Source of the DNA: Staphylococcus phage S6
Strand: one strand, 5' to 3'
DNA: 64,000 nt
Sequence record: LC680885.1
The translations under genes were made by a program, and so were the position numbers. The stretch's first letter is position 1; each line of letters begins with the position of its first letter. Of the stretch, positions 5,164 through 62,752 are shown piece by piece. The notes beneath the pieces are model-generated. The model did not search any database. It was not told where the DNA came from and saw only the letters and a program-made list of their open reading frames with translations.

Positions 5164-5195
5164 AATTTATTTATATTTTGTTACTAACAATATAA

Positions 5196-5240
5196 ATATA
5201 GAAATCTAAATTTCTATATTGTTTTACCTTTTGTTTTGTC
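5196..5240 (+). terminator. intrinsic terminator hairpin
   Basis: ATATAGAAAT-ctaa-ATTTCTATAT stem followed by a T-rich run (TGTTTTACCTTTTGTTTTG). Confidence 0.5.
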
Positions 5241-5501: not shown

Positions 5502-5540
5502 CCCCAATACCATAGAAAAATGGTATTGGGGTATTTTATT
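5502..5540. terminator. bidirectional terminator hairpin
   Basis: CCCCAATACCAT...ATGGTATTGGGG stem, with an A-run on the left and a T-run on the right. It sits at the 3' end of the minus-strand ORF 5539-6252. Confidence 0.6.
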
Positions 5541-6252: not shown

Positions 6253-6276
6253 AACCTTTAATCACATCCATACATA

Positions 6277-6912
6277 TTATTTAAAGTTTCTATAGAAATC
6301 ATCAAGTCCATTAAGAACAGATTCTTCTAAGAAAACTTTGATAGTTTTATTACTTTCTCTAATTGAAGCTAATTGAGAACCTTTATCATAACTGATATTA
6401 GATTCATCAACTCCAGCAAATCCCATATCTTCTGCAATGTATTTCACATTATCTGAATTTTCTTTAATATAAGTTAAAACTTCTCTAGGAGAGAATTCAG
6501 TAATTTTACCATTAGCAAACATATCAATTGATTCATTTACCATTTGTAAATCATTAGGATTATAGTTATTATGACCTTCTGAAATAATATTTTGAATATA
6601 AGAATCTTGATGAGATGGAATTACTACCCAATCATAACAAATTAATCTTAAAGGCTTAGTAACTTCAACTTCACCAGAAGGTGTTCTATTAATTTTACTG
6701 AAACCACGCATTGAGAAAGATACGTCAGATTTTTGTCCAATTAATCCTTTCATATCTTTACCAGCTGCAGTTTGAGCTGTTTCTACTTCTCCCATTAATT
6801 TATTACCATTCCACCAAGTTCTAGTAACAATATGAGAAATATTGCGTTGATCAATATACATTTGACGTTTAGGTTCATCACTTAAGGGATGTCCTGATTC
6901 CATTATCTTCAT
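6277..6912 (-). CDS. prohead protease, exon 2 (true exon probably begins near 6900 at GAA-TCA-GGA-CAT-CCC = ESGHP)
   Basis: No Shine-Dalgarno sequence precedes the ORF ATG and in-frame stops lie just upstream. ESGHP...SHIV..WWNGN..MG...SMRG resembles the His and Ser regions of T4 gp21-type prohead proteases (recollection, not a search). Confidence 0.6.
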   Translation of the reverse strand: MKIMESGHPLSDEPKRQMYIDQRNISHIVTRTWWNGNKLMGEVETAQTAAGKDMKGLIGQKSDVSFSMRGFSKINRTPSGEVEVTKPLRLICYDWVVIPSHQDSYIQNIISEGHNNYNPNDLQMVNESIDMFANGKITEFSPREVLTYIKENSDNVKYIAEDMGFAGVDESNISYDKGSQLASIRESNKTIKVFLEESVLNGLDDFYRNFK

Positions 6913-33700: not shown

Positions 33701-36603
33701 CCAAAGCCACTTGATTTTTCTTCCATAGCCATATCAGTTTGATCTCCAAAGCTTTTAGCCATACCTGTAGTTTTCTGAACCATGTTCATACCTAAACCAA
33801 ATGCTGGTTTTACAATTGATTTATATAATCCCATTCCAGCTAATCCTAATAAAGGAGTAGAAGCTAATAAAGGATTATCTTTAATAAAACCGCCTATAAT
33901 TGAAGATTTATCTACAGAACCACCCATTTTAGTATCAACTGAAGGATCAACTGCAAAATTTTCTCCACCAGGTTGAGTTGAATCTAATTTCTCTTGTTCT
34001 TTTTTAGTTTTAGAAGGATGATCATTGAATCCAATAATGCTACCTAATGTTTTAATTGGATGTTTTAATGATTCTATAGGATGAGTTATTGTTCTAATAA
34101 TATCTGGTCCAGCTAATGCCAATGATGCAATTTGTCCAATACCAGGTATAGCATTTACTCCAACACGAGCACCTACTTTAGCTCCTGCTTTAAGTAATCC
34201 TTTACCTACAGCTTTTTTAGCACCTTTTCCAGCAGCCATTTTAGCAGCTCTAGCTTTAAGTTTTCCTTTAAGTCTACTACCTGCACCAGCCATTAAAGCA
34301 CCACTAGCAGCAAATTTGCCAGTTAAAGAACCACCCATGCTAGTTACTTTACCACCTAATTTAGTATTAGATAATTTACCTATTTTTTCTTTAACAAGAT
34401 CTTTACCTTTGTTTTTATATTTATCAAATTTTTCTTTGAGATGTTTATTACCCTCAATAAAATCTTGAGCTTCTCCTACTTTATCTGCAAAATCTTTATC
34501 ATCTGAATTGTCAGAAGATTTAGCTTGTCCATTTTCTAAAGTTTGTTCATTAGGAATAATAGTAGATCTATTATCTTCATCTTTAATATTATCATTTCTT
34601 GTATTATCAGATTTTCTACTTTGATTTGTATTAGAAGATGCTGTAGAAGTATTTTTATTTAAAGTTTGCTCTCTAGGATCTATTTCTCTAGAAACATTAT
34701 CATTAGGTTGATTTACATCACTAATTATACCACTTGAATTACTGTCACTAGAATTACTGTTATATCTTTTCTCAGGTATTTTGCTATTTATTCTAGATAC
34801 AATTTGTTTAATTTCACTTATATCTTTATTAACGATATTGAAGTTAATATTATCGTATACTGCATCTTTATTAGTGCTAAGAATACCACTTCCATTTTCA
34901 TTATTTAATTTAGAAGTAATATTTTTAGAAGTACCTTTTCTTTTATTTTCATCATTAAGAGCATTTATAGAACTACTAGATAGTTTCTTCTTAATATCTT
35001 TAGATTCTTTATTTAATTGCATTCTAGTTTTAGTTAAACTAGTTTTAGCTTCTTTATCATTAAATAATTTATCTAGGAGAATATTAAATGGATCATTCGG
35101 GTCATTTGATTTAACCTGATCAAGTTCATTGCTTTTATTAATATTTTTAGAAATAATTTCTTTAATCTTAGATGTAGCTTTATTTTTGTTATCTTCATTA
35201 CTGAAAAGATCAATTCCCATTTCAGAAGCTATATTTTCAAATTCTTTAGTAAAACTAGATTCTTTGATAGTTTTATTAACTTTTTCTTCTATATCATCTT
35301 TAATAGATTTAGAAGTTTTAAATGAACCTGAATCATAGTCATAATGAATTTCTTGACCATCTTCTGAAGTTAAACCAACTATTTTGGATAAATAACCAGG
35401 TATAACTGTATTAAGTGTATTATGAGTTTCCACATCAAAAGCAACTTTTTGATGTCTATCTTTTCTGTTAGCAGTTGATATACCACCAGTTACACTATCA
35501 AATATTTTGTCAATTAATTTACTTTTACCTGATTTGACATCCTCAAGAAGATCATCTCTTCTTTTGTCTCTTTTTCGTTGTTTAGTACCATCTTTATCAT
35601 CTTTACCAAAAGGATTAATTTTTTTATTGGCAAATTTACCGACTGCTTTTTCTATAAAAGTATTTTCATTATTAAGGAAATCAAAAGCTTTACCTTTAGC
35701 TACATCGACTAAACCTAAACTTTTGATACCTTGTTTTTTAGAACCAATAACTTCTTTAAGTAATTCAGTTCCTTGTTTTTTAATAAAGTCTTTAGCTTTA
35801 TCTTTGAATCCTTCTTCTTGAGATCCTTCTAATATACTTGATAAAGTTATATTAGATAAGAATAGATCTTCTAATGAATTACTATTTTTAATTTCAGATA
35901 TATTTTTAATTTTAGTATTCTGTCTAATAGCATTACTAGTTTGAATTAAACCATTTAAATTCTGGAACATACTTTCTCTAATACTATCATTAGCTTCTCT
36001 CATTAAGTTAAGATTATCAATCATAGAAGTAAAACCAGTAGTATTTATTTGAGAAAGATTAGATACAGAAGAAGTTAATAGAGCTGTAGATTTAGCAGAA
36101 GAACCGCCATCATTAATAACTGTTGTGGAAGATACTATTCTAGATTTATTATCATCTTCTTCGTCAAAGTCATCAAATTCAAAATCACCATCTAAAGAAT
36201 CATCTGTGTCAGAATCCATATCTGAAAAACTATCGTCAAAACTAAAATCTTCAAAATCACCACCGACATCCATGCCCATGTTATTGAAGTTTTTTAATGA
36301 TTCTTTATCTTGGATTGTTTCTCCAGTTTTAAATGTATTCTTAGTAGATTCTAAAGCTTCTTTAGATAAATCTTTAGTAGATTCACTTATCTTTTGTAAT
36401 TGTTTTTTCTTTTTATTCTTTAATTCTTTGACAGCCTTTAATGGATTATTCTGATCCATCATACGCTTCATGTCATTAGATTTCATTTTATTTAAATTTT
36501 TATTAAATTCAATATCTATATATTTTCTAGAAGATTTAGAGGAGGAGTTATTTCTAAACTCCTTCTCTATCTTGCTAGTGTTAAATTTCTTATCTCTAGC
36601 CAA
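30721..36603 (-). CDS. giant tape-measure-like virion protein B (1960 aa) with lysozyme-like and NlpC/P60 peptidoglycan hydrolase domains
   Basis: Gly/Ala/Lys-rich tape-measure-like core. AGVLGNFAHESG...GIGIAQWDNTRR is a phage-tail-lysozyme-like block. ANSFDCSSLIARAY...GDIILCDNIEHVTMY is an NlpC/P60 Cys/His pair. The C-terminal tail is G/S/N-rich. Confidence 0.7.
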   Translation of the reverse strand: MARDKKFNTSKIEKEFRNNSSSKSSRKYIDIEFNKNLNKMKSNDMKRMMDQNNPLKAVKELKNKKKKQLQKISESTKDLSKEALESTKNTFKTGETIQDKESLKNFNNMGMDVGGDFEDFSFDDSFSDMDSDTDDSLDGDFEFDDFDEEDDNKSRIVSSTTVINDGGSSAKSTALLTSSVSNLSQINTTGFTSMIDNLNLMREANDSIRESMFQNLNGLIQTSNAIRQNTKIKNISEIKNSNSLEDLFLSNITLSSILEGSQEEGFKDKAKDFIKKQGTELLKEVIGSKKQGIKSLGLVDVAKGKAFDFLNNENTFIEKAVGKFANKKINPFGKDDKDGTKQRKRDKRRDDLLEDVKSGKSKLIDKIFDSVTGGISTANRKDRHQKVAFDVETHNTLNTVIPGYLSKIVGLTSEDGQEIHYDYDSGSFKTSKSIKDDIEEKVNKTIKESSFTKEFENIASEMGIDLFSNEDNKNKATSKIKEIISKNINKSNELDQVKSNDPNDPFNILLDKLFNDKEAKTSLTKTRMQLNKESKDIKKKLSSSSINALNDENKRKGTSKNITSKLNNENGSGILSTNKDAVYDNINFNIVNKDISEIKQIVSRINSKIPEKRYNSNSSDSNSSGIISDVNQPNDNVSREIDPREQTLNKNTSTASSNTNQSRKSDNTRNDNIKDEDNRSTIIPNEQTLENGQAKSSDNSDDKDFADKVGEAQDFIEGNKHLKEKFDKYKNKGKDLVKEKIGKLSNTKLGGKVTSMGGSLTGKFAASGALMAGAGSRLKGKLKARAAKMAAGKGAKKAVGKGLLKAGAKVGARVGVNAIPGIGQIASLALAGPDIIRTITHPIESLKHPIKTLGSIIGFNDHPSKTKKEQEKLDSTQPGGENFAVDPSVDTKMGGSVDKSSIIGGFIKDNPLLASTPLLGLAGMGLYKSIVKPAFGLGMNMVQKTTGMAKSFGDQTDMAMEEKSSGFGGLIKKVVGGASMLMMAPLALAGKGLSNLTGMTSMLLQGGTGLIKSGWGWLKDKFSSHEEEMGNMSKEMTEASKEELSSYQEGIESEASDRAKKEIAEMNGMSDKANKDAKKQVEESAGKTRDDIKKDVDGAMKNSPLSVMGRIGHQMNKLMPKNLMSKLKKAPKKLAETMMRMSPFYSLLSKKKKKKSKLDINEPGGEVVNTIGDWFDKLGGMMNDIMAGFMAGSGSSSSSSASSSGSDAAGIEGEGAEKIWNFLKDKGLSDEQTAGVLGNFAHESGMKADRVQGDAKFDEAKANSAISGYGIGIAQWDNTRRQGLMKYAKEKGKKWSDLDLQLDYLWKELSGSESAALSHLKTTKTVEQAAASWVSKYERAGVPALGSRISSGNAFIKQFSGSGKKSTKKKGGGAGGGGAGSVIADTNDISKFSNMVSSTSGKNKSSRRTGIIKGNPPIQRGGGGGGSQKAKIDKAVAWAKKQVGAKYSQPNRQGANSFDCSSLIARAYVKAGLDMDKNATTHSFWNGDTPFEKIKAKSPKDLKPGDIILCDNIEHVTMYIGGGKQVEANGVDGVVINSANKYKNPKWGIDGYMRYGEGGSDSGSSSDEGSESGGSPGASEYSFKNGTWYGSITGRDDNRMDEEEQEALNDRLMKRYAQIYGIDYEEAKKIDQEQQEKLKSEAGKKKSESGSSGSDGEDGESGDSGSSGSSGSDGEDGESGTTGQDGSSSSMPGQSQQQGSGSSSGGSTVINNGGNTNSTIVNNNYTSPGTTTNNSTTHQTIQGDNNTVRNIYNITNNYNNSTVSYKNGPMKVDKQKRMDLDEINKHTSNIDKNTAKMLDQLRKMSFKGNNTTINKGDNIFNNTTINNKGDLVDSKGNVIIKEINKEIDKIIKDNLQNNPDIINGANGNNGSNGNTGNNGQNGNNGANGNNNNGNVIVNPNDPYNPGTGGNNGNGSTIIINPGNNNGPSQGDSDLQEAINRAYGDQFNIDVRSAIPVFSGK

Positions 36604-36626: not shown

Positions 36627-39600
36627 CTATTTCAATTCTTCTAATAAACGGTCTAATTCTTTAGTAGAAGCTAATGTATTTCTATCTATATTAGCTAACA
36701 TTCTTACTAAATCATCTGAATACCATAATTTTTCATAATCATAGGTATAACCAGAGTTACCATTTTCAATTTTAGAATTTTTATGATTGTTTACAATTTT
36801 ATTATAATGGTTAGTTACTCGGTTTTTACCTTTTATAAATTCTTTATTCACATTTTCATTATTAATGACATTACTTTGTCCATTTTGATAGTTGTTATTA
36901 ACTGTTTTAGTATTTTTACTACCTTGATTATTGACATTGTTATTACCTCTATTAATATTAGAAAAACCACTATTAGCTAATGTTGGTAATTGGAATACCG
37001 GAGGATTTCCGATATTCTTATTATTAGTTATTTGAGATCTTGATTCTTGTGGTTTAGATGGCGATGCTGAAGAATCAGAACTATCTGAAGATTCTTCATC
37101 TCCAGAATCTTCACTTCCAGATCCTGATGAACCTGATCCGGATTCAGATTTCTTCTTACCGGCTTCAGATTTTTTCTTTTCTTGTTGTTCTTGATCGATC
37201 TTTTTAGCTTCTTCATAGTCAATACCGTATATCTGAGCATAACGTTTCATTAATCTATCATTTAATTCTTCTTGCTCGTCTTCATCCATACGGTTATCAT
37301 CACGACCAGTTATTGAACCATACCAAGTACCATTTTTGAAACTATATTCTGAAGCTCCTGGACCTGATTCACTATTTCCTTCTTTATCATCTTCATCACT
37401 TTTAGAAGCAGAAGAACTAGATCCTCCTCCGCCAATAGTCTCTTTAATTGTACTTGCTAAAGCTTTCTTACCTTTACTATTCGGATGAACACCTAAACCA
37501 TCATTTTCAATCATATCAGAACTGGCTTTACTATTCCAGTCTATTACTTTTGAATCTGAACTTTCAATAGCTTTATTAGTTGCTTCAATAATATCAGAAA
37601 TATCAGATCCTTTTCTCTTTTCAGGATCTACATACGTATTAACAAAGTATACATCTGCTTTGTCATACATATCTTCTATTTCTTTAACATTACCTGTAGT
37701 TAATCCTCCATTAGTACCTAATTGCACTATAATTGCATTTTTATCTTTATTGTATTTCTTTTTGTTGGATTCTAATACATTTTTACCATTAGGCGAAGGA
37801 CCTCCACTTGAATAAGTTCTTGAAGGAACTGCATTAATTTGAATTTTACTAACTGATTTTCTTATTTCAGAAGCAGCTCCTGCACCTATGGAGTCACCTA
37901 CCATAAATACTTTATTGTAGGATTTACCTCCACCGCCTCCACCAGTTACCGTTTTAGCTATTTTTCTAATGGCTTCAGGAGTATTACTGAATGGAAATCT
38001 ATCTTTAATAAAATTATCAACTCGTTTTTTAATCTTCTTAATATTGTATATATCTGAATTGTAAATCTTAGTTTTTTCTTTTTCTGCCTTTTCTTCAGTT
38101 TTCTTCTGATTATTTTCTAATTTATTTAAAAGAGCTCTATCATTTCTTACTTCTTTAGCTCTTTGTCTTTTAGCTTCTTTGACTTCTTGTGATTTATAAC
38201 CACCGTCTACCATTTTTACAGTAGGATCAAATGCAGCTCCACCTTTTTTACCTTTTTTAGATTTTCCAGCTTTACTACCTTTGTCTTCATCACTACCGCC
38301 TTTAGAACCTTTTAAAGGAGCTTTAATCCAAGGTGATGGATCTACAGAGTTTTTCTCCATAGCCCAACCGCCTGGTTTACCTTTATTTATTTGGAAGTGA
38401 AGGTGACCTGAACCAGCAGTATTAGCACCAGTGTTACCTGAGATTGCTATAACTTGTCCAATTTTAACTTTATCGCCCTTTTTAACTAATTGTTTAGTTA
38501 AATGCATATACGTACTATAGATGTTACCAGGTGATTTAACTTGAACAATATTACCTCCACCCGGATCGGTGTTTGATCTAATAACTGTACCTTCTACCAT
38601 ACATTTAACTTTTTGACCTGGAAGCATACCTATATCAATACCATAGTGCTTTCCTCCGTTAAATGATAAACCAGAATAGTTACCATATGGTTGCCAAATC
38701 GCAGCACTTGGTATTTTTTTCATCCAAGCACCAACTGTGCCATCTGGTATTTGATTAATAGAACCAGGTACAATTTTCTTAGTATTCATATCTACTTCGC
38801 CAGCTTCACCTGAAACTTCAGGTTCACCGTCTCCACCAGAATCGCCACCACTGGAATTTTTCATTTTAGACATTGCAACAACCATTTCTTCCATTTTAAC
38901 TAAGAAACGACTGAACCAATCTCCGATTTCTCCTTTACCATATTTAGAGAAATCAATTCCGCCTTTAGCTATTTGATACAAACTACCTAGAGGTGTACTC
39001 ATGAACATATCTTTTTGAATATCTTCTTCAGCTTTTGGTCCTGATTTCATTTTATTATCAGTAATTGTTTTAAACATATCTCCACCAACTTTAGCTAGTG
39101 GGAACATAGGAGATGCTCTAAACATTAGTTTAGAAGTACTTAATATTAATCTACCTAAACCTGTTTGATCTTCAGTATGTTTTTCTTCTTTACTTTTAGC
39201 TTCATCTTCTATTTTATCACCAGGATGTTCACCAATTCCGAAGAAACTACCTAATGTTTTAATTGGATGTTTTAATGATTCTATAGGATGTTTAATAGTT
39301 TTAATGATATCAGGAGCCCACATTGCTGCACCAATTACTGGTCCAACAAATGGTATGAATGGTAAGGCTGTTTTCAAACCTGCTTTTAATGCAAATTTTC
39401 CTCCAGCTTTCATTGCACCTTTACCAAATAATTTATTTTTAGCTTTACCTATAGCACCAAAAGCTTTTCCTCCAAGTTTCTTAGCTCCACCGAATAAACC
39501 TTTACCGATAGATTTAGCTCTGTTAAAACCTTTAGAAGCAAATTTACTTATTCCTTTAGTTGCAGCTGAAGCATTCTTTTTATTAAATATTTTAGATATA

Positions 39601-42600
39601 CCACTTTTAGCTACTTTTCCTATAGTTTTACCGGCACTTAATCCTTTTTTAACTAATCCTGCACCTTTACCTATAACCATTTTACCTAAAGATTTAACAG
39701 AAGGTAATTTATCTTTAGCAAATTTTCCAATACCTTTAAATACATTACCTATTTTTTTAGGAGCACCTTTAATACCTCTAAATAATTTTCCTAATCCAAA
39801 TTTTCCAGCTATATTTTTAATTCCGCCACCTATTTTACCTAACATGCCAGGCATACTAGTAAAGAATTTACCTATTCCGCTTGGTAATAATTTAGATAAT
39901 AATTTAGGTCCAAATTTAGCAGCTAAGAATCCTCCAGCACCCAACATTGCAGCGTTACCTAAGAATCCTCCAGCAGATGCTAAGAATCCTTTCTTACCAG
40001 GTTCTAGATCTTTTTTACCATTTTTACCTTTCATTAATGAACCTAATACAGCTGCAGAAGTTCCAGCAAATAAAACTGGCCCCATTTTACTAAAATCAAG
40101 CATACCATTCATCATTTTTTTAGCACCAATGGATTTTTCAGCTTCTCCACCTTTTCCAAAGTTTATATTGCCTCTAATGGATTCAGCAATTTCTTTTTTA
40201 TTGGAACCTGTTATTTTAGACATAACATCTTCCCCAGATTTTCCTGCATCGGCAGTTGAAAGGCCTTGTTTCATTCTTTCTAAAGCTCCAGCATCTTGAG
40301 AATCTTCCATATCTTTTTTAATAGTTGGATCATTGCCAAAAGCAGTTTTAACTAAATCGATTATTGTACTCTTAGCTTTCTTTTCTTTTTCCTCTCTAGT
40401 TAAATCATCTATCGTTTTGCTTGGTTCTTTAGTGTAAGCATCTTTATTAGCTTCATTATTATTAATTGATAATTTATTTAAACCAGGAATATTCTTCATT
40501 AAATCCATTAATGGATTATTATCTATAATACTAGATTGATTTATATTCTGATAAGGATATTCATCATCTTGATCTGGTTGAGTATTTTCTTGAGTTGAAT
40601 TAACTCTACTAGATGCAGAAGAAACCATATCTTTAATAGCACTTGTAGGATTTTCTTTGTATTCTTTAGCTTTACTAACAGCATTAGAAAGACTATTTAA
40701 TTTATCCATTACAGAAGCATGAGCTTCATTATTTCCGTTATTTCCACTTAGAATAGGGAAACTTTTACCTTTATCTATGATACTATTGATCGTATTAACT
40801 TTATTATTAATAAATTCTTTATTATTATTAATATTATCATTACTGAAATTATTATCTAATTTTCTTTCTATTTCTAAGAAAATATTTTTAATTTCTTCTA
40901 AATCACTATTTTCCCAGTTAATATTACCAAAATCTTTAATCTGATTAATATTATCATTATTATTAGATCTAGAATAAGTCGAATTAGATTTATTTAAACC
41001 TTCTATTTCAGTAAATGCCATTATTCTTGAATTATCTTTTTTATCAAGTGTTTTTGAAATAGATTTCTTAATATTGAATAAATCAGTATTAAATTTAGCT
41101 GAATTCTTTTCAAACACTTCAGATAATGACTCAGTATTAACATTTATATTTTTCTGATTAACTATTTCTTTAAGTTTAGAAGTTTTTTGGATAGGTTTGT
41201 CTATTTTAGTTAATTCAGCTAAAACTTCTTTAGTTCTTTCTTCATCATTATCTAATTTAGATAATAATTCTTTACCTAAATAAGTATCTTTAAAATTAAA
41301 TAACGAATCTGATTTAATCTTATCCAAATCTTTTTTCTTAGCCGAACCTCGATTTTCCCAAACACCTTTTCGGTAATTATAGATACTACCTAATTCAGCA
41401 TTATCTGCTAATCCGCCTGAACGACCTTCTTTTTTGGCTATCAAATTACCTTGAAGTCTAGATAAGAAGTCTGGTATAACTTTATTAATAGACGTATGAG
41501 ATTCCATATCAAATTGAACAGGAGTATCTTTTTTACGTTTATTTTTTAGAGAAATTCCACCCTTACCATCACCTAATACTTCTTCTTTAAATTGATCTAA
41601 TCTACCTGAAAGAGCATTTCCTAAATTAGATATATACTTATTATCATTACCAGTTAATCTTTCTAAACCTTTAGTAAGTTTACTATCTTCATCAAGATTT
41701 CTATTAATAAGCATAGAACCTATATTTTGTGGATCAAATCTTTTATTCAATCTATTAAATATATTTTTATTATCGCCTTCAGGATCATAACCACCAATAT
41801 CACCGTAAAGAAGCTTATTAAATGCAATTTTAGCTCCTTGAGTTGCAGCAAATTCAATAGGATTTTTAGCTACACCCATTAACATTGATTTAAGTTGGTC
41901 TCCTGACATCATACCCATTAATAAATTTTCAGGATTAGTTTTCTCATCCAAATATTTTAATAAACTAATATTACCATTCAATATAGAATGTAATTTACTT
42001 TGTTTATTTCTTTTGGTATTTTCTTCCATTATTGTATTTTGATATATACCATCCTGTATTGTACTTAAATTTGATAAAGCTGAATCTACGAGACTGTTAG
42101 TTGCTTGCATTGATAAAGAATAATTATTCAGTGCAATATTTGTTCCAACAAATCCTCTTTGATTTATCTCAGCTAAATTATTCATTGCTACTAGAGGTGA
42201 ATTTGTTATTTTAGATTTCTTTTTATCTGATAAACTAACAATTTCAGATTTAGTCCCATCAGGATTATCAATATATTCTGTTACTGATTCATATTCAGGT
42301 TTTTCATTAGATAATTTTTCATTACTACTTGAAAAAAGATCATTTTCATTAGATTTATTTTTTAGTGTTTTTAATAAATCATTAGTAGAACCTTTAACTT
42401 CAGAAAATTTCTTTAATCTTCTTTCATCATTGTTGAATAATTTTAAACCTGAATCTCCCACTATAGCATCTAATGATGGATTAGATTTTATAAACGCATT
42501 AAAAAGAATACGACCAGTATTTTTAGAAGCATTTTTAATGACAGTTGATTTATTATTATTTTCTAATTGTCTAATATTCTTTTTATTTCTATTATTTTTA

Positions 42601-42605
42601 GCCAA
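36627..42605 (-). CDS. giant tape-measure-like virion protein A (1992 aa) with M23 peptidase and SGNH/GDSL hydrolase domains
   Basis: YGIDIG...H(x)D M23 motifs plus GSGHLHFQ. FMVGDSIGAG (GDS block) and DGLGVHPN (DxxH) indicate an SGNH hydrolase. Gly/Lys-rich tape-measure-like core. It is a paralog of protein B. Confidence 0.7.
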   Translation of the reverse strand: MAKNNRNKKNIRQLENNNKSTVIKNASKNTGRILFNAFIKSNPSLDAIVGDSGLKLFNNDERRLKKFSEVKGSTNDLLKTLKNKSNENDLFSSSNEKLSNEKPEYESVTEYIDNPDGTKSEIVSLSDKKKSKITNSPLVAMNNLAEINQRGFVGTNIALNNYSLSMQATNSLVDSALSNLSTIQDGIYQNTIMEENTKRNKQSKLHSILNGNISLLKYLDEKTNPENLLMGMMSGDQLKSMLMGVAKNPIEFAATQGAKIAFNKLLYGDIGGYDPEGDNKNIFNRLNKRFDPQNIGSMLINRNLDEDSKLTKGLERLTGNDNKYISNLGNALSGRLDQFKEEVLGDGKGGISLKNKRKKDTPVQFDMESHTSINKVIPDFLSRLQGNLIAKKEGRSGGLADNAELGSIYNYRKGVWENRGSAKKKDLDKIKSDSLFNFKDTYLGKELLSKLDNDEERTKEVLAELTKIDKPIQKTSKLKEIVNQKNINVNTESLSEVFEKNSAKFNTDLFNIKKSISKTLDKKDNSRIMAFTEIEGLNKSNSTYSRSNNNDNINQIKDFGNINWENSDLEEIKNIFLEIERKLDNNFSNDNINNNKEFINNKVNTINSIIDKGKSFPILSGNNGNNEAHASVMDKLNSLSNAVSKAKEYKENPTSAIKDMVSSASSRVNSTQENTQPDQDDEYPYQNINQSSIIDNNPLMDLMKNIPGLNKLSINNNEANKDAYTKEPSKTIDDLTREEKEKKAKSTIIDLVKTAFGNDPTIKKDMEDSQDAGALERMKQGLSTADAGKSGEDVMSKITGSNKKEIAESIRGNINFGKGGEAEKSIGAKKMMNGMLDFSKMGPVLFAGTSAAVLGSLMKGKNGKKDLEPGKKGFLASAGGFLGNAAMLGAGGFLAAKFGPKLLSKLLPSGIGKFFTSMPGMLGKIGGGIKNIAGKFGLGKLFRGIKGAPKKIGNVFKGIGKFAKDKLPSVKSLGKMVIGKGAGLVKKGLSAGKTIGKVAKSGISKIFNKKNASAATKGISKFASKGFNRAKSIGKGLFGGAKKLGGKAFGAIGKAKNKLFGKGAMKAGGKFALKAGLKTALPFIPFVGPVIGAAMWAPDIIKTIKHPIESLKHPIKTLGSFFGIGEHPGDKIEDEAKSKEEKHTEDQTGLGRLILSTSKLMFRASPMFPLAKVGGDMFKTITDNKMKSGPKAEEDIQKDMFMSTPLGSLYQIAKGGIDFSKYGKGEIGDWFSRFLVKMEEMVVAMSKMKNSSGGDSGGDGEPEVSGEAGEVDMNTKKIVPGSINQIPDGTVGAWMKKIPSAAIWQPYGNYSGLSFNGGKHYGIDIGMLPGQKVKCMVEGTVIRSNTDPGGGNIVQVKSPGNIYSTYMHLTKQLVKKGDKVKIGQVIAISGNTGANTAGSGHLHFQINKGKPGGWAMEKNSVDPSPWIKAPLKGSKGGSDEDKGSKAGKSKKGKKGGAAFDPTVKMVDGGYKSQEVKEAKRQRAKEVRNDRALLNKLENNQKKTEEKAEKEKTKIYNSDIYNIKKIKKRVDNFIKDRFPFSNTPEAIRKIAKTVTGGGGGGKSYNKVFMVGDSIGAGAASEIRKSVSKIQINAVPSRTYSSGGPSPNGKNVLESNKKKYNKDKNAIIVQLGTNGGLTTGNVKEIEDMYDKADVYFVNTYVDPEKRKGSDISDIIEATNKAIESSDSKVIDWNSKASSDMIENDGLGVHPNSKGKKALASTIKETIGGGGSSSSASKSDEDDKEGNSESGPGASEYSFKNGTWYGSITGRDDNRMDEDEQEELNDRLMKRYAQIYGIDYEEAKKIDQEQQEKKKSEAGKKKSESGSGSSGSGSEDSGDEESSDSSDSSASPSKPQESRSQITNNKNIGNPPVFQLPTLANSGFSNINRGNNNVNNQGSKNTKTVNNNYQNGQSNVINNENVNKEFIKGKNRVTNHYNKIVNNHKNSKIENGNSGYTYDYEKLWYSDDLVRMLANIDRNTLASTKELDRLLEELK

Positions 42606-54247: not shown

Positions 54248-56311
54248 ATGTTAAAAAAGACTACAGAAAATGAATTAGAAAAGTTATTCAATGTCACTAT
54301 TTATAATGAAGAATTTTCTAATTTAAAACCTATGTATAATAGAAAAGATACTGAAACTAGAACTAAATTAAATGACAATCAAAATTCTAGAGTGTATGAG
54401 AATTTAATAAATTTCATTAATTATTCTAAAGCAGGAATGACACACATGTTTTTAACTCGTTCTAATAAATATAGAGATAAATATATTGATTTTCTAAGAA
54501 ATAGACTTGGTAAGGAAGATTTATTAGATGAGGTTGAATTTGAATATACAGATAGATATTTCAGATCTTTCATATATAATATAGATATAATTAGAAGAAG
54601 TGAATATCAAACACATCAATCTATAGAAAATGACTCTAAATTAGAAGATTCATTCTTATTAAGAAATGGAAATACAAATATAGATAGCTTTAAAACGGAT
54701 AATGGTTTATCTATAGAATTTTTAGATAAAGATGTAAAGAAAGATTTTTTAGATAAGAACAAACAAATTAGTTTAGAATCTTTGCTAGCTATCGATACGA
54801 TGGTGTCTAATTCATTAAGAAAGAAATGGTTAAAATCAATTGAAAAAGAAGAATTACCTGATATGAATATTATATTTAAAGAAGTTCCAGAAGTAGTAAT
54901 TATACTAGCAAACAGTATATATGAAAGATCAAATTTCAAATTATCATATGTAGATAGAAGTGTTATTAATATACACGCAGACGTTTCAGATGTTTTTGAA
55001 TCAATACTAACTTTAACTTCTAATTTTAATTATAAATTAATATTAGATTTAATAGATGAAGATTACTTAAGTAAAAATTTAAATCATTTCAAAGCTTCTG
55101 AATTTTCTTTATCTGACAATAATGACATTGATAATATATTTAGTATAATCGGAATTATTAAAAAACAAACGGACGTTATTAATAAATTTATAGAAAAAAG
55201 CAAATCAGATAATCTAGAAGACAATATTAATTTAATAATTAAAGAAAATGAAATAGATGATGACTTTGGAGAAATATTAAAAGTTTATATTGATAGTGTA
55301 TTATCTAAATTTAGAGAATATATTGAAGATGATACCAATATATTAAAAGATTCATCTAAGGTTTTAATAGGTGAAAATCTATTTGATTTCTTTATGAAAT
55401 TAGATGATCTCGAAATTTTAATGATTAGAAATATATACAGAGTTTTAGATAGTAATGTATATAATCCTGTAATCAGAGATGTTAAAGAATCACAAGAAAA
55501 AGTTATGAATGGAATAGTAGATTATTTTAAAAATAATACTAAAAAATTATCTTTAGATTTATCTAATATCGATATAAGTAGATTGAAAGATAGTTCTTTC
55601 ACATTATTAAACGATTTCATAACAAATGGAGAAGTAAGTAATCTTCGTATGAAACCTAATGAAGCTAATATAGAGTATTTCTATAAATTAAGTGTGGATA
55701 AAGAATTAAACCGTGACATATTAAATAGTAATATACAATATATGAAACAGGAATTATTAAAAGGTTTTAATGATGATTCTAAAATGACTTCGAATGCTAT
55801 TATTGAATTTGATAATTTTAATATTAATTTTGCTGTAATAGAAAATAATTCATATAATAATGAAATAGAAATAATGATGCAAGGAGTTACTTTTAAGAAA
55901 AAATTAACTGATGAGGATATTGCTACTATCTTTTTATATTCACATAAAGAAGTTAGTATATATCAAGACAAAAAATTAGTTATCATGGATAGAAATTATT
56001 TCTCTAGAAGAGGTATAAATAAATTTATAAATAATATGAATAATGTCTTCACTGATTTAGATGGAGAAAGTTTATCTAAATATATGTCTTTAATTTATAA
56101 TTTATTATCTTTATCAGATAATTCTTTTGAGGAAGATAAAGCAATTTATAATACTCTATATTACAATAAATTTGAATATATTAATAAAGAAAATGAGTTA
56201 AAAGTTGATAGTTATATTAATATGATTAATAATAAAGATGTAACAGATGATTTTAAAAAGAAATTTAAAAAGGTAAGATCTAAGTATTTAGTTTCTAGAA
56301 TATTTATTTAA
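54248..56311 (+). CDS. hypothetical protein (687 aa)
   Basis: AAAGGAG RBS. No recognisable motif. Confidence 0.5.
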   Translation: MLKKTTENELEKLFNVTIYNEEFSNLKPMYNRKDTETRTKLNDNQNSRVYENLINFINYSKAGMTHMFLTRSNKYRDKYIDFLRNRLGKEDLLDEVEFEYTDRYFRSFIYNIDIIRRSEYQTHQSIENDSKLEDSFLLRNGNTNIDSFKTDNGLSIEFLDKDVKKDFLDKNKQISLESLLAIDTMVSNSLRKKWLKSIEKEELPDMNIIFKEVPEVVIILANSIYERSNFKLSYVDRSVINIHADVSDVFESILTLTSNFNYKLILDLIDEDYLSKNLNHFKASEFSLSDNNDIDNIFSIIGIIKKQTDVINKFIEKSKSDNLEDNINLIIKENEIDDDFGEILKVYIDSVLSKFREYIEDDTNILKDSSKVLIGENLFDFFMKLDDLEILMIRNIYRVLDSNVYNPVIRDVKESQEKVMNGIVDYFKNNTKKLSLDLSNIDISRLKDSSFTLLNDFITNGEVSNLRMKPNEANIEYFYKLSVDKELNRDILNSNIQYMKQELLKGFNDDSKMTSNAIIEFDNFNINFAVIENNSYNNEIEIMMQGVTFKKKLTDEDIATIFLYSHKEVSIYQDKKLVIMDRNYFSRRGINKFINNMNNVFTDLDGESLSKYMSLIYNLLSLSDNSFEEDKAIYNTLYYNKFEYINKENELKVDSYINMINNKDVTDDFKKKFKKVRSKYLVSRIFI

Positions 56312-56324
56312 ATATATATTATAT

Positions 56325-56370
56325 AATTGAGTTGGTAATTGAACTTATCAACTCAATTTAATTTTTAATT
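56325..56370 (+). terminator. intrinsic terminator
   Basis: AATTGAGTTG...CAACTCAATT stem followed by TAATTTTTAAT. Confidence 0.5.
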
Positions 56371-56383
56371 AATAGGAGATGAA

Positions 56384-57571
56384 ATGGATATGAGTAAAGC
56401 AATAAAAGATTTATTTATCAATTACAATATATCTTATATTGAAGTTAATGAAGATCATGAACTTAATGAAATTGATAAAGAAGAATTATTAAAAATATTA
56501 GATTTTGATATTAAATTTGAAAAGGAAGAAATTTTAATAAGTGATAATATTAAAATAAATAATTTTAACGGTAATAAGTTAATAAATTTTGTATTTAATT
56601 ATTACTATACAGATAATGAATCACTAAAAGTATTTTTAAAAGACGTTATCAAAGATATTATTATGTATGGATATAAAGAAGATAGAAAAATAAGTCTAAA
56701 TATAAATCAATTACCTTTAGTATTTTATATAAATAAATTTTGTAAAGATAATGACATTAAAAATATTAAATTCTTTTATACTTTTAAAAATTCTTATGGG
56801 AATTTTTCATTTGGTTTATTAAAAGAAGAACATCTAGATGAATTTATTGATGATATAGAAGAAATAAGCAATAATAAGTTCTTCAATTTAAATAGTGGAT
56901 TATTAGATAATGACTTAATAATTAATGGAAATGAAAAGAAATTTATGAAGCTAATATCAAGTTTAATAGATTTAGATATGTCACATAAGGGTAATATATT
57001 TAAATTAAAAATGATAAATTATTTTTATAAATTATTTAATAGTTATATTAATAGTAAAGAAGATTTAGAATATGCAGATGAATTAATGAAGTTTAAAATA
57101 GATAGTCTTAAATATGGTGAATTTAATAAATATTATCTATATGAAAGATTTATAATCGGTATAGATAATTTATATGAACAAGAATTCTTAGGATATAATA
57201 CAAGAATGAATTATAATTATTTTATTGATAAAATACAAAAAATTGAAGATGAAGATGAAGTTAAATATATTTCAAAAATTGTTTTCTTTACATTAATAGA
57301 TGATATTTATAATGAAGCATCATTCTTTTTATCTTTTAGAACAGTCAATAAATATACTGATATTGCAGTTAAAGAAATATTGAAATTGATTGAAGACAAT
57401 CTTACAGAAAATCAGAAGAAACAATTTGTCAGAGAATATATGAGTATGAAAGATAGTTCATTTTATGCTTCAAATGAAAAATATAATCAAACATCTACAC
57501 TTGTTAAAATGTCTAAAGGGAAATTGAAAAAATTAATTATGAATGAAACAGTTAAAAAGACATTTATTTAA
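56384..57571 (+). CDS. hypothetical protein (395 aa)
   Basis: AGGAGATGAAATGG RBS. Confidence 0.5.
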   Translation: MDMSKAIKDLFINYNISYIEVNEDHELNEIDKEELLKILDFDIKFEKEEILISDNIKINNFNGNKLINFVFNYYYTDNESLKVFLKDVIKDIIMYGYKEDRKISLNINQLPLVFYINKFCKDNDIKNIKFFYTFKNSYGNFSFGLLKEEHLDEFIDDIEEISNNKFFNLNSGLLDNDLIINGNEKKFMKLISSLIDLDMSHKGNIFKLKMINYFYKLFNSYINSKEDLEYADELMKFKIDSLKYGEFNKYYLYERFIIGIDNLYEQEFLGYNTRMNYNYFIDKIQKIEDEDEVKYISKIVFFTLIDDIYNEASFFLSFRTVNKYTDIAVKEILKLIEDNLTENQKKQFVREYMSMKDSSFYASNEKYNQTSTLVKMSKGKLKKLIMNETVKKTFI

Positions 57572-57585
57572 AGGAGAATCAGCTT

Positions 57586-58299
57586 ATGTTAGTTAAAAAA
57601 GAAAAATTAAAGAATAGAAATGATATCAGAATAGATCATATTATAAGTATTAATTTAGATGATCCTTCTGCACTTAATATGGTTTCATTCCAATTATTAA
57701 TAGAAAGTAATATTCTGAGTTGTTATATTAATAACAACTTAGATACTACTTTATTTACTAAAAAAGAATTAGATAAATATAATAAATTCATAGATTTTGC
57801 TATTGATAATTTTGAATCAAATGGTTTATTTATAAATAAAAAACCAGATGAATTTCTAACTGGTTTAATAAGAAAAGCTTCTATTTCTAGATTATTTAAA
57901 ATGATCGATCCAATTGATAAAACTATCAGCAATGAAAATTTATTTATTACCAGATTAAAAAATATTAGACATAATATAAATGAAACTGATAGTAAAGATT
58001 TAGCTTACTTCTTATATACTAACTTTAGAGAAGATGTTCCGTTAGATAGATTAAAAGGTTTAATGTCTAACCCACATTTAACATCATTATTTGAGTATTT
58101 AATGAATGGTAATTTAATAATGGAGATTGATGAGCAATTGTTAAATAAATGGATTATGTTTATTGATTATGAAATAGATGGCCTTAAAGGATCCATTTAT
58201 CATAGATTAAGACATAGTTTAGTTAATGTAATCAATAAGTATAATAATATACAAGAAGCTAAAGGTTATTTAGGGTATGAAAGATTAGAATTAGAATAA
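57586..58299 (+). CDS. hypothetical protein (237 aa)
   Basis: AAGGAGAATCAGCTTATG RBS. Confidence 0.5.
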   Translation: MLVKKEKLKNRNDIRIDHIISINLDDPSALNMVSFQLLIESNILSCYINNNLDTTLFTKKELDKYNKFIDFAIDNFESNGLFINKKPDEFLTGLIRKASISRLFKMIDPIDKTISNENLFITRLKNIRHNINETDSKDLAYFLYTNFREDVPLDRLKGLMSNPHLTSLFEYLMNGNLIMEIDEQLLNKWIMFIDYEIDGLKGSIYHRLRHSLVNVINKYNNIQEAKGYLGYERLELE

Positions 58300-58332
58300 A
58301 CTTAAAAAGTTTAGTGAGAAGGGAAATTTTGA

Positions 58333-58992
58333 ATGAAAAAATTTAGAGATGAATTAATAAATCACTATACAAATTTATTGAGATTCAACGATGATTCTTT
58401 TTATTATAGATTAAAAATTAATTATTTGAATTTCGATTTCTCTAAAGATGTAAATTTAAGAAAAAATAATGTGTTTAAATTAAATTATAAAATCAGCTTT
58501 TTCCTATATTTTAAAATTTTAATAAAAGATTTTATTTCAAATAATTTAGATGAAAATGGTGTATCATTATTATTTTCAGATAGTGTTAATAATAATAATT
58601 TTATTTCTACATTATTTGTTAAGAATAATTCTGATATTGAATTGAAACTAGATTTGGGTGTGTATTATGAACTAGATGAAACTAAAATAGTTCTAATAGA
58701 TTTAAATGAAGAGTTTAATATAGAATATTCAGATGATAGTATTATAATTCATACAGATGAAGATAATTTTGAAAATGTAGTTTATTCTATTCTAAACAAA
58801 ATCAAATTCATCTTAGAAGGAAATATATATGCATTTAGCATATCTTTATTTGGCAATGGAAAAATAGGAGATAGTAATATATTTTATTTAGAAGAGATTG
58901 AAAATATATTTAACTCTAGAAAAAATAGTATAATTGAAGAACTTTCTGAAAGTGAAGTTAAAAAATATAAAATCAAAGAAGGGTTTAAATAG
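58333..58992 (+). CDS. hypothetical protein (219 aa), divergent member of the tandem paralog trio, ends KIKEGFK
   Basis: GAGAAGGGAAAT RBS. Its C-terminal tag is degenerate. Confidence 0.5.
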   Translation: MKKFRDELINHYTNLLRFNDDSFYYRLKINYLNFDFSKDVNLRKNNVFKLNYKISFFLYFKILIKDFISNNLDENGVSLLFSDSVNNNNFISTLFVKNNSDIELKLDLGVYYELDETKIVLIDLNEEFNIEYSDDSIIIHTDEDNFENVVYSILNKIKFILEGNIYAFSISLFGNGKIGDSNIFYLEEIENIFNSRKNSIIEELSESEVKKYKIKEGFK

Positions 58993-58994
58993 TA

Positions 58995-59606
58995 ATGGGT
59001 GATATTAAATTTAATGAAGAATATATGTCAGTTAAAATTTATAAGTTAATTAATTTGTTTGAGTTTCAACAAACAACTCGTAAAAGAGCATTTTCAAACC
59101 ATAATTCTGAAAGTGATGAAAATGAGCTTAATATGTATATAGGTAAAAATGACAATAAAAATATGATTGACATTTTTACTAGTTCTTTCTTTTTATACAA
59201 TCAATTTAAAGATGTTTGCAGTTTAGTATTTAACAATGGTAATACTATTATTGCAGAAATTGAGATATTAAATAAAAATAAATTGTCAATTGAAATTAAT
59301 TCAGAAATCTTAATTGATGATAGTGAAATTAAAAATTTCATTATCAAAAATGATTTTAGTGTAGGAGATGGATTCTTAGGCTTAATTATTGAAAATGATA
59401 AAGAAAAAATTCTTAAATTATTTTTAGAATCATTGTCTGATAGTTATTTTTGGATAAACAAGAAAAGAAGTTTAAATATATCTGATTCTAAAAAAATTAA
59501 ATTTAAAAAATATTTAGAAGATTTATATAAAATGAAAGATTTTTATAGTAAAGAAATCACTGAAAAAGAATATAAAGAAAATATAGTAAAAGATAATTTC
59601 AAATAA
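58995..59606 (+). CDS. hypothetical protein (203 aa), paralog, ends EKEYKENIVKDNFK
   Basis: Its C-terminal 30 aa closely match the next ORF. A TAATATAATCCCAATAC element follows it. Confidence 0.5.
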   Translation: MGDIKFNEEYMSVKIYKLINLFEFQQTTRKRAFSNHNSESDENELNMYIGKNDNKNMIDIFTSSFFLYNQFKDVCSLVFNNGNTIIAEIEILNKNKLSIEINSEILIDDSEIKNFIIKNDFSVGDGFLGLIIENDKEKILKLFLESLSDSYFWINKKRSLNISDSKKIKFKKYLEDLYKMKDFYSKEITEKEYKENIVKDNFK

Positions 59607-59697
59607 TATAATCCCAATACTTATTAATGTAATTAACAAATTTAAAAGATTAAAAATTATTTAGTTTACGAAAGATTAGAACTGGAGTGATATTTTA

Positions 59698-60339
59698 ATG
59701 GAAGAGATTTATCTTGATAAAAGATTTGATAGTGAATATTTTAAAATAAAAACTAGAGATATGATAAACTCTGTAAGATTTACTAAAGAACCAAACTTTG
59801 ATTTAATTATAAATAACCGTAAAGAAGAAAAAATTTTATATACTAAAAATGACAGTATTAGAAATTTATTTATTGAATCTTTTATCTTGTATTTAAATAA
59901 TATTACAGACGTTTATACATTTAGTATATCAATCAGTAATATTAAGTTAATTTTTAGTTTAAGATACAATCATACGAATAAAGATACCAAATTTTTAATT
60001 TATATAATAGAAAATGATAAATTTAATTATGAAAAAGATGTATCTGAATTAGAAAAAATATTAAATGACATATCTTCTTTAGTAAATAAAGAATACTATA
60101 TATCTAAAGGTAGTTTTATAATAGACTATTTAGATATAGAAAAAATTGATAAGATATTATATTACATTAATAAATTAGATGATCTTCGTATAATGTTAGA
60201 TGATTCAGAAAAAGAAGGAAAATCGTATTTAAGTTACAACTCTTTTCTTAAAGAACTTTATTTAAAAAGAAACCTATATTCTAAAAGTATTACTAAAAAG
60301 GAATATACTGATAATTTAGTTAAAGAAAATTTTAAATAA
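59698..60339 (+). CDS. hypothetical protein (213 aa), paralog, ends KKEYTDNLVKENFK
   Basis: Paralog of 58995-59606. The same downstream TAATATAATCCCAATAC element is here extended into a full hairpin. Confidence 0.5.
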   Translation: MEEIYLDKRFDSEYFKIKTRDMINSVRFTKEPNFDLIINNRKEEKILYTKNDSIRNLFIESFILYLNNITDVYTFSISISNIKLIFSLRYNHTNKDTKFLIYIIENDKFNYEKDVSELEKILNDISSLVNKEYYISKGSFIIDYLDIEKIDKILYYINKLDDLRIMLDDSEKEGKSYLSYNSFLKELYLKRNLYSKSITKKEYTDNLVKENFK

Positions 60340-60345: not shown

Positions 60346-60400
60346 CCCAATACCTATTACATCAATAGGTATTGGGAAAAATTTAAATTATTTTTTATTT
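60346..60400. terminator. bidirectional terminator hairpin
   Basis: CCCAATACCTAT-tacatca-ATAGGTATTGGG with flanking A/T runs. It lies between convergent ORFs. Confidence 0.55.
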
Positions 60401-60691
60401 CATGCTGTCTAATTCAGCTAATTTTAATTTAGCTTTAGTTGCATATTTTTGACGAATTATGTCACGCCATTTTTTACGAGCACGAGCAGCTTTTTGATAT
60501 TTAAAATAGATTGGATCTTGAGCTTCTTTAGCTGCAACTAATGCTAATTGGTTTAATCTACGTTTACGTTTAGTACGTTCATCTAAACGCATGATATTTT
60601 GTTCACGTAAAAGAGCTTCATCAGTTGCTTGCATAATTTGCTCTTCTAGTGGAGTAATGTTATTTTTCATAATGGAAGATCTTCCTTTCAA
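60395..60691 (-). CDS. small highly basic protein (98 aa), possible nucleic-acid-binding protein
   Basis: K/R-rich (RKRRLNQ...KAARARKKWRDIIRQKYATKAK). It is a lone minus-strand gene with a GGAAGATCTTCC-type RBS. Confidence 0.45.
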   Translation of the reverse strand: MKGRSSIMKNNITPLEEQIMQATDEALLREQNIMRLDERTKRKRRLNQLALVAAKEAQDPIYFKYQKAARARKKWRDIIRQKYATKAKLKLAELDSMK

Positions 60692-60817
60692 TTATTTTTA
60701 TTATTCATTATAATGATTATAAGAAATATGTTTTATTTAAGAAATATGAAAAAATTATTGAACCATAATAACTTATCTTATATAAGTATGAATCTATAAG
60801 GAGATGAGAATTTATTT

Positions 60818-62752
60818 ATGTCTAATCAAGATAATAAATATGAACGTAAAAGAGCTATAACAGGATATTTAGAAAATTTAATCAAATTAATTAAAATAAG
60901 AAAACCTGATATTGATAATGAAAAGTTAATTAATACTTGTAGAGAGTATATTAAAAAACATGTAGATCCAGCTTTAATAGAAATATCTGGACAAAAAATG
61001 AATGTGGATACAACTTTAAGACAAATTATAGATAATAATTTAATTGTAACTGGTTCTGGTTCTATTTATCAGCCTCAATCACAAAGAAAAAATTTAAATG
61101 CAGACATGTTAAAAGACTTTATAGATTCTCGTAAAGTAGCTAAACATAATATGTTTATATATAAAGGTAAAGATGATGTTTTACATGATAAATATATGAA
61201 CGAACAAAAAACAATTAAGATCTTGGCTAACAGTTATTACGGTGCTATGATTCAAAAGAATAGTACATTCTATGATGCTAATTCAGGTCCAGCAACTACA
61301 TATAGTGGTGTTGATATTGTAACTACTTCAGCAATAGCTTTAGAAAGATTTATAGGTGGAAAAATATTCTTTATGAAAATTGATGAAATATATCATTATA
61401 TATTAAGAATAATCAATGAAGAATATAAAGATCATGATATTAAAATAAAAACAATTCCAACTGATATGGAAATTTTAGAAGGTTTAGTTTCTAATGTTGA
61501 AGAATCTTTTAGCGAAGAAGAATATCTTAAATTAGAAGAAGTATTTAGTAAATTAAGTCAAGAAGATAAAAATAAGGTATATTTCAAAAATAACTTATTT
61601 GGTTTAATTGATCATACTGATATATTTGAGAATAAAATTAGTAAAATGACTGGTAGAGAAGATTTCTTAGATCCGAACGAACCACCTGAAGATATGATTC
61701 CATTATTAGATGAATTATTTGAAATATTAAAAGATTGGGTTATATACAACTATCAAGATTATAATAGAATGTATAGAATGAATTACAAGAAACGTAGAAG
61801 TGTTCTCACAATTGACACAGATTCAAATTTCGTTCACTTAGATCCATTATACGAAAAAATGAAATCATTAAAACCTGAAGATTTTCCTTTAGCAGAAAAT
61901 GGTTTAGAAGATAAATTAGAAGAACGTGTAGGTAATATATCTATTATTAACTATCAAATAACTAAATTATTAGAATTATCTTACTATGGATTCTGTAAAG
62001 ATGTAGGATTAGAAGAAGAACATTTAGGTTTAATATCAATGAAAAATGAATTTTTACTTGATAAACAATTAACAACAGATAAAAAGAAAACTTATGCATC
62101 ATCAGTAATTCAACAAGAAGGTAATTTAATTCAACCTCCAGATTTAGATGTTAAAGGTATGGCTATTAGAAAAGTTAACACTAATAAACGTATTAGAGAA
62201 TTATTTACTGAAATATTACAAAAAGATATTTTAGAAAATAAAACTGGTGTAGATCGTATTAAGATAATACGTAAATTTAAAGATATTGAAGAAATGATTA
62301 AGAAATCATTAGATAATGGAGAAATTGAATTCTTAAAACCGTTTAAAGCTAATAATGCTGAAGTGTATAAAGATCCTTATTCTCAAATGGCTTATAGAGC
62401 TGCTTTAGCATGGAATATAATGTTCCCAGAAAAGGAAATAGCACTACCTGCTAAGATATTAGCAGTTAAATTAAATATTAGTACATTTGGAGATATTAAG
62501 AATAAGATAACTGATGAAAATACTTTAAATAGATTTAGAGAAGTATTTAAGAATGAAAGTTTAGTTAAAAATGGTTTAAATGTAATTGCAGTTGAAGGTA
62601 ATACAATTCCTGAAGAGTTTAGACCTTTTATTGACTATGATAGTATGATTGAAGATCATATTAAACCAGGTAAAGATATTATTGAATCTATAGGAGTTAG
62701 AGTATTGGAATCTTCAAATAGCTCATTTGTATCTAATATGATTAAATTCTAA
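60818..62752 (+). CDS. family B DNA polymerase, C-terminal (palm/fingers/thumb) fragment encoded as a separate gene
   Basis: Motif B KILANSYYGAM, motif C LTIDTDSNFVHL, and KKKTYA (KKRY-like). There is no exonuclease domain and no motif A. It has its own AAGGAGATGAG RBS and ATG. The upstream gene is on the opposite strand. Confidence 0.8.
   Translation: MSNQDNKYERKRAITGYLENLIKLIKIRKPDIDNEKLINTCREYIKKHVDPALIEISGQKMNVDTTLRQIIDNNLIVTGSGSIYQPQSQRKNLNADMLKDFIDSRKVAKHNMFIYKGKDDVLHDKYMNEQKTIKILANSYYGAMIQKNSTFYDANSGPATTYSGVDIVTTSAIALERFIGGKIFFMKIDEIYHYILRIINEEYKDHDIKIKTIPTDMEILEGLVSNVEESFSEEEYLKLEEVFSKLSQEDKNKVYFKNNLFGLIDHTDIFENKISKMTGREDFLDPNEPPEDMIPLLDELFEILKDWVIYNYQDYNRMYRMNYKKRRSVLTIDTDSNFVHLDPLYEKMKSLKPEDFPLAENGLEDKLEERVGNISIINYQITKLLELSYYGFCKDVGLEEEHLGLISMKNEFLLDKQLTTDKKKTYASSVIQQEGNLIQPPDLDVKGMAIRKVNTNKRIRELFTEILQKDILENKTGVDRIKIIRKFKDIEEMIKKSLDNGEIEFLKPFKANNAEVYKDPYSQMAYRAALAWNIMFPEKEIALPAKILAVKLNISTFGDIKNKITDENTLNRFREVFKNESLVKNGLNVIAVEGNTIPEEFRPFIDYDSMIEDHIKPGKDIIESIGVRVLESSNSSFVSNMIKF

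Follow-up and report, generated by a model that had tools for sequence, protein, structure and literature searches.

The open reading frame (ORF) at 60818-62752 of the analyzed 64-kb stretch of DNA (the window) very probably codes for the C-terminal subunit of a replicative family B DNA polymerase that is a heterodimer and in which the palm is shared by two polypeptides. The source phage is an AR9/PBS1-like, phiKZ-related Staphylococcus jumbo phage, and the two-gene layout of the polymerase is already known and has been published for phiKZ/AR9-like jumbo phages. The N-terminal subunit (N-subunit, 573 aa) would provide the N-terminal domain and the 3′-5′ proofreading exonuclease with the motifs Exo I-III, and would also supply the first palm strand and the helix with motif A, including the first metal-binding aspartate D486. 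The C-terminal subunit (C-subunit) would contribute the fingers (R105, K109, and motif B), a helical insert, the second metal-binding site (motif C, DTD), the KKxY motif, and the thumb. Both proteins would be translated separately, and their non-covalent association would then rebuild one active site. The features of both subunits are listed in Table 1.

Table 1. Features of the two polymerase subunits; nucleotide positions refer to the window.
Feature	Nucleotide position	Strand	Sequence or residues	Basis
C-terminal ("catalytic") subunit gene of a two-polypeptide family B DNA polymerase	60818..62752	+	644 aa	ORF
Shine-Dalgarno-like sequence before the ATG at 60818	60800..60809	+	GGAGATGAGA	sequence read
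N-terminal head	60818..61093	+	aa 1-92	AF2 secondary structure, alignment conservation
Finger helices with invariant R105 and K109	61094..61249 (including motif B)	+	aa 93-143	alignment
Motif B	61217-61249	+	KILANSYYGAM, aa 134-144	coordinates, invariant columns
Multi-helical insert between motifs B and C	61286..61786	+	aa ~157-323	AF2
Motif C, metal-binding DTD hairpin of the palm	61808..61831	+	TIDTDSNF, aa 331-338	invariant columns
KKxY motif, palm contact to the primer terminus	62081..62098	+	KKKTYA, aa 422-427	invariant columns
Thumb-like C-terminal region	62165..62749	+	aa ~450-644	Pfam, alignment, AF2
Exo I of UFVDC4_00046			CLFDIEVDG (core FDIEV)	alignment to RB69/T4 gp43
Exo II of UFVDC4_00046			CTAWNLDYDFP (WNxxxFD-type)	alignment to RB69/T4 gp43
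Exo III of UFVDC4_00046			LYNIKDT (core YNIKD)	alignment to RB69/T4 gp43
Motif A of UFVDC4_00046			DFDLSALYPSII (canonical DFDLSALYPS); D486 = RB69 D411	alignment

The ORF is intact, with no internal stops in its translation. The original prediction, which was made from the sequence alone, had described an own ribosome binding site (RBS) and an ATG about 100 aa before motif B. The RBS and the start were confirmed by the Shine-Dalgarno-like GGAGATGAGA and by an in-frame stop six codons 5′ of the ATG, which rules out a longer N-terminus of the C-subunit; the distance to motif B had to be corrected to 133 aa. An RBS is also annotated at the equivalent position in the phage MarsHill.

In a comparison to Pfam, the C-subunit matched PF20286 (divDNApol, "Divergent Family B DNA polymerase") with an E-value of 4.9e-53 (180.8 bits at a curated cut-off of 25.7) and PF00136 with an E-value of 7.7e-11. 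Additionally, PHROG 2927 ("DNA polymerase") was matched with an E-value of 1.3e-96. As profile matches, these assignments to polymerase families in Pfam and PHROG are far above chance. The traits of the PF20286 family, namely the DTD hairpin, the helical insert, and an unfused 3′-5′ exonuclease, are all found for the C-subunit. The protein is 100% identical to UFVDC4_00020 of the phage vB_SauM-UFV_DC4 (DC4), and the DNA around the gene (6 kb) is 99.5% identical to the DC4 genome. The ortholog in AR9 is gp152 (35% identity, E-value 3e-94). An AF2 model of the C-subunit reached a moderate pLDDT of 76, and its top Foldseek matches in the PDB were all family B polymerases, with weak E-values (best 7.5e-3). 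Due to the moderate pLDDT and the weak E-values, the model was not used for fine mapping.

Motif B, motif C, and the KKxY motif, which had been recognized in the original prediction, are all present in the protein. Among 15-20 homologs, the residues R105, K109, K134, N138, Y141, and G142 as well as D333, T334, D335, S336, K423, K424, and Y426 are invariant. The C-subunit carries every polymerase motif but motif A, all of them invariant in the family. Neither Exo I-III nor motif A was detected in the C-subunit by Pfam scan and motif search, in agreement with the original prediction.

The N-terminal head of the C-subunit comprises two helices predicted by AF2 (aa 7-28 and 34-48), which are followed by short strands. 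A conserved hairpin (LIVTGSGSIY, aa 75-84) precedes the fingers, and the alignment shows conservation of I76, G79, and N92 in the head region, which is a candidate docking surface for the C-terminal tail of the N-subunit. The region of the fingers and motif B aligns to residues 452-562 of the archaeal Deep Vent and D.Tok family B polymerases. K134 of motif B and D333 of motif C are 199 aa apart, and the insert at aa 157-323 is mostly helical in the AF2 model with a pLDDT of about 80-94. A long helical insert before palm strand 2 has been described as a family-specific feature (Iyer et al., 2021; PMC7824862). The thumb-like region falls in the C-terminal part of PF20286 (profile positions 384-704), residues 452-723 of gp248 from the phage SPN3US align to it, and aa 480-620 show a pLDDT of about 85-92.

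The gene directly upstream lies on the opposite strand, as had been predicted. It is located at 60395-60691 (-), divergent from the polymerase gene, and encodes a small, basic, probably helical protein of 98 aa. Its product shares 46% identity with the "virion protein" g153 of AR9, which is found in the same divergent position, and g168 of phiR1-37, annotated as "phage structural protein", occupies an equivalent position. The synteny of this virion-protein gene and the polymerase gene is shared by phages of Bacillus, Staphylococcus, and Yersinia. The neighbor gene differs from the SH3-fold neighbor described for phiKZ-type phages (Iyer et al., 2021).

For the identification of the N-terminal half, g170 of phiR1-37 was used as a probe, a second gene annotated as "B-family DNA-polymerase" near the catalytic-subunit gene of this phage. 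One homolog per genome was found in AR9/PBS1, in all Staphylococcus jumbo phages, and in others. In DC4 it is UFVDC4_00046 (573 aa, 37289-39010 of the record), which is encoded downstream on the same strand as the C-half gene, with 19,059 bp between the stop of the C-half gene and its own start. According to the DC4 record, the partner gene is located approximately 17.8 kb past the window end, and the sequence of the N-subunit was taken from this record (99.5% identical DNA), beyond the 64-kb window. The window and the DC4 record differ in their permutation, and position 1 of the window would precede the start of that record. A protein of Staphylococcus phage S6 matches the N-subunit of DC4 with 100% identity.

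UFVDC4_00046 aligns to gp43 of RB69/T4 with an E-value of 1.4e-10 over Exo I-III and motif A, and its C-terminus lies 80 aa past motif A. Its ortholog in AR9 is gp132 (38% identity, E-value 8e-118). Within the 64-kb window no N-half homolog was found by tblastn with three N-half proteins, and a search of all six frames gave no motif-A-like pattern. A Pfam scan of 30 large window ORFs also returned no N-half, a negative result which is uninformative because Pfam misses the true N-half of DC4 as well. In AR9, the gene directly after the N-subunit gene, g131 (4604-5197 of its locus), encodes a separate DnaQ/Rv2179c-like 3′-5′ exonuclease (Pfam E-value 1.3e-13). The gene at the same position in DC4, UFVDC4_00047 (260 aa, 5608-6390 of its locus), is without a Pfam match.

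The break point between the two halves is conserved. For the C-half, 19 homologs of 490-717 aa were found in the database; all of them contain only PF00136 and PF20286 with a common alignment start, and neither motif A nor an exonuclease domain occurs in any of the 19. For the N-half, 443 database homologs were found. Motif A is recognizable in 104 of the 120 listed homologs, the tail after motif A has a median length of 69 aa in these 104, and none of the 120 contains motif B or C. The SPN3US protein YP_009153312.1 (gp248), which is the exemplar of the divergent PolB family (Iyer et al., 2021; PMC7824862), starts at the equivalent position, without motif A. The motif-A helix of the N-half (479-514) aligns to residues 404-439 of RB69, which would place the break in the variable palm segment from the motif-A helix to the pre-finger hairpin, at roughly 440-455 of RB69 gp43.

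The same start and architecture are found in nine Staphylococcus phages, AR9/PBS1, phiR1-37, SPN3US, and many metagenomic homologs. The apparent start is therefore not an assembly artefact, which had been considered as a possible source of error. In this phage group as a whole, the split is of ancient origin and has become fixed. The original prediction of a stand-alone C-terminal polB half is supported. It had also located the portion with the Exo motifs and motif A elsewhere in the genome, the split between motifs A and B, and the halves at a distance from each other, all of which hold for UFVDC4_00046 in the near-identical DC4 genome. What it missed is that the split is the defining, published architecture of the whole phage group and not a rare oddity.

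The retention of motif A in the N-half, without the other polymerase motifs, argues for its use together with the partner. Alternatively, the C-subunit could polymerize alone, with a different acidic residue in the place of motif A, and the exonuclease protein would then be a loosely associated proofreader. A stand-alone proofreader corresponds to the phrasing of Iyer et al. (2021; PMC7824862), and the AF2 fold of the C-subunit is reasonable by itself, with its pLDDT of 76. However, the partner keeps a textbook motif A and the next palm helix in 104 of the 120 listed homologs, which a mere exonuclease would not need to retain. Furthermore, not a single D or E is found among the invariant columns before R105, and the annotators of AR9 also recognized a partial catalytic domain in gp132. 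Polymerization by the C-subunit alone is therefore considered rather unlikely.

An active site shared by two separate proteins also has to be distinguished from a full-length polB, into which the halves could be joined by a split intein or by RNA trans-splicing. Split-intein polB genes are present in other jumbo phages (PMC6892783), and members of this phage group often contain introns and inteins, even in the polymerase-subunit genes of relatives. However, a Hint/intein Pfam domain is absent from both halves, and aa 1-120 of the C-half contain no HN[C/S/T] junction; the sole Asn-Thr in the C-half head (N39-T40) is unconserved and lies inside a predicted helix. The N-half tail past motif A comprises just 80 aa, of which the initial ~30 align to the RB69 palm, so that an N-intein of about 100 aa has no room. 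Splicing is also contradicted by the own RBS and ATG of the C-half, which is bounded by the upstream stop, and by the genome order with the C-half gene before the N-half gene, and trans-splicing by the lack of any Rfam intron at gathering score in the whole window. A joining of the halves by either route is thus highly improbable and largely refuted, and the check for intein and intron remnants which had been proposed with the original prediction came out negative for inteins in both halves and for introns in the window.

Insertions of this kind are known from the genes of relatives, in which one or both polymerase-subunit genes are broken by introns or homing-endonuclease genes, whereas the C-half gene in the window is uninterrupted. 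Joined coding sequences are given for subunit genes in MarsHill (5001-7121 of its locus) and Madawaska (2887-4761 of its locus), and the interruption consists of an HNH gene in PALS_2 and of g167/g164 in phiR1-37 (4740-7063 of its locus). In the window itself, an ORF for a LAGLIDADG homing endonuclease (7062-7811, Pfam E-value 2.1e-19) adjoins the ORF 6277-6912 in the region 5539-7811 (-). The latter matches only the C-terminal half of the Peptidase_S77 (prohead protease) profile (positions 96-192 of 198). This suggests an intron or an endonuclease insertion within the prohead protease/scaffold gene, as in relatives. A group I intron near 5539-7811 was not found at the Rfam gathering score.

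The ORF could also be a decayed polB duplicate or a pseudogene fragment in a phage which is replicated by another polymerase. An essential catalytic motif is indeed missing, and the gene product is labeled "hypothetical protein" in the GenBank record of DC4. Against this, the remaining catalytic residues are invariant in homologs down to 23% identity, and the gene is conserved and intact in at least 175 phage records. Each half is present in a single copy per genome, so that neither a second copy of a half nor a full-length polB, which had been named as a possible refutation, accompanies it. In addition, the AR9 ortholog is expressed (PMC5312081), and the list in the DC4 genome paper contains no other DNA-dependent DNA polymerase. 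The probability of a non-functional remnant is accordingly close to negligible.

For the C-subunit as one part of a two-polypeptide enzyme, further support comes from AF2, since in a model of the C-half by itself the confidence drops precisely in motif C (333-336) and in the KKxY region (410-447). In this predicted model, the drop would be consistent with an incomplete palm sheet. Both gp132 and gp152 of AR9 belong to the "continuously expressed" class (PMC5312081). A precedent for the reassembly of a split polB is given by 43A/43B of Aeromonas phage 25, which purify together and show activity (PMC2988022). A net negative charge of the final 35 aa is seen in 92% of the N-halves, and the heads of the C-halves are only weakly basic. 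Since this charge complementarity at the junction is modest, it gives only a weak suggestion of an electrostatic zippering. We infer that the two subunits physically assemble and are active; in the literature we found neither a biochemical or structural proof of heterodimer formation in this clade nor experiments on subunit assembly in this phage group.

In several related phages the two genes have been annotated before. In AR9, gp132 is described as "exonuclease and partial catalytic domain" and gp152 as "catalytic subunit", and both subunits are also annotated in phiR1-37, MarsHill, Madawaska, Machias, and PB50. For phiKZ, a "split subunit DNA polymerase" was mentioned by Thomas et al. (2016; PMC5105663) and credited to Cornelissen et al. 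(2012). The divergent family (PF20286) was defined by Iyer et al. (2021; PMC7824862), with the exonuclease encoded elsewhere. A table in the DC4 genome paper lists UFVDC4_00020 as "DNA-polymerase catalytic subunit" and UFVDC4_00046 as "DNA polymerase".

The AR9 pair gp132 and gp152 shares the break point and the non-adjacent layout with the pair of the window phage and DC4, and nothing substantive differs between them. The divergent PolB of phiKZ and SPN3US belongs to the same PF20286 family and has the DTD, the long insert, the unfused exonuclease, and the N-terminal boundary without motif A in common. However, the identity between the Gram-positive AR9-like branch and the phiKZ/SPN3US proteins is only about 21-26%, and an extra insertion of 40-60 aa as well as an acidic C-terminal extension are found in the phiKZ/SPN3US proteins and not in the AR9-like branch. 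In DC4, an RNAP beta′-like gene is annotated 1.5 kb downstream, and RNAP subunits and a DnaB-like helicase are annotated in the table of the DC4 genome paper. As far as these annotations go, the context of multisubunit RNA polymerases and a divergent DnaB, which is typical of PF20286 phages, is present.

The split gp43 (43A/43B) of the Aeromonas phages 25 and 44RR likewise consists of an N- and a C-terminal polypeptide (PMC2988022), and among solved structures the window phage N-half is most similar to RB69/T4 gp43. However, the 43A and 43B cistrons are adjacent, with a short untranslated spacer and/or a homing-endonuclease gene between them, whereas in the window phage 19,059 bp lie between the two halves and the C-half gene comes first. 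The 43A/43B split is recent and restricted to its lineage, and the C-half of the window phage belongs to PF20286 and not to classic gp43. The two splits are only distantly comparable. In Methanothermobacter thermautotrophicus, PolB1/PolB2 form a non-covalent two-polypeptide family B polymerase, which is encoded by distant genes. Its split is located further downstream, so that motifs A and B both remain in the large subunit, and this archaeal enzyme is of unrelated origin. The PolB of Nanoarchaeum equitans is made of two separate pieces which are joined by a split intein. A multi-subunit DNA polymerase induced by PBS2 was reportedly purified in the 1970s and is not used as evidence here. The fractured polB of the Pseudomonas phage MIJ3 consists of two pieces, which are protein-spliced and have intein blocks where they are joined (PMC6892783).

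The window is very AT-rich, with a GC content of about 19-35%, and its functions are typical of large myoviruses and include a gp23-like capsid protein, a sheath protein of 1050 aa, a tube protein, a class I RNR, and a Dda/PIF1-like helicase. Directly upstream of the polymerase gene, seven consecutive ORFs at 54248-60339 (+) have no family match and a GC content of about 19-22%. A paralog family among these AT-rich flanking ORFs, considered for their similar C-terminal endings, was rejected, as a relationship was detectable for a single pair, 58995-59606 and 59698-60339, which share 39% identity in their C-terminal 67 aa and both terminate in ...NFK. Furthermore, two adjacent genes at 30721-36603 (-) and 36627-42605 (-) encode proteins of ~2000 aa with cell-wall hydrolase domains, one with a phage tail lysozyme, an NlpC/P60 domain, and a collagen-like repeat, the other with a Peptidase_M23 domain. 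This pair presumably represents virion-associated peptidoglycan hydrolases or tape-measure-like proteins.

It is conceivable, and in our view very unlikely, that the fixed separation of motif A, together with proofreading, from motifs B and C serves a function of its own. The active site might form only where the subunits meet at the replication site, or the catalytic subunit might swap N-terminal/exonuclease partners, for which the DnaQ-like exonuclease gene next to gp132 in AR9 would be an example of a second candidate. If this were true, either use of the split could tune the fidelity on uracil-containing DNA.

The main value of the finding lies in annotation, as both polymerase genes of DC4 are deposited as "hypothetical protein" in GenBank and are named in the genome paper and in related records. 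How the subunits find and hold each other is a reasonable question for structural biology and not a new discovery. With its two genes, the phage would offer a clean example of a replicative polymerase in which the two-metal active site is built from two polypeptides.
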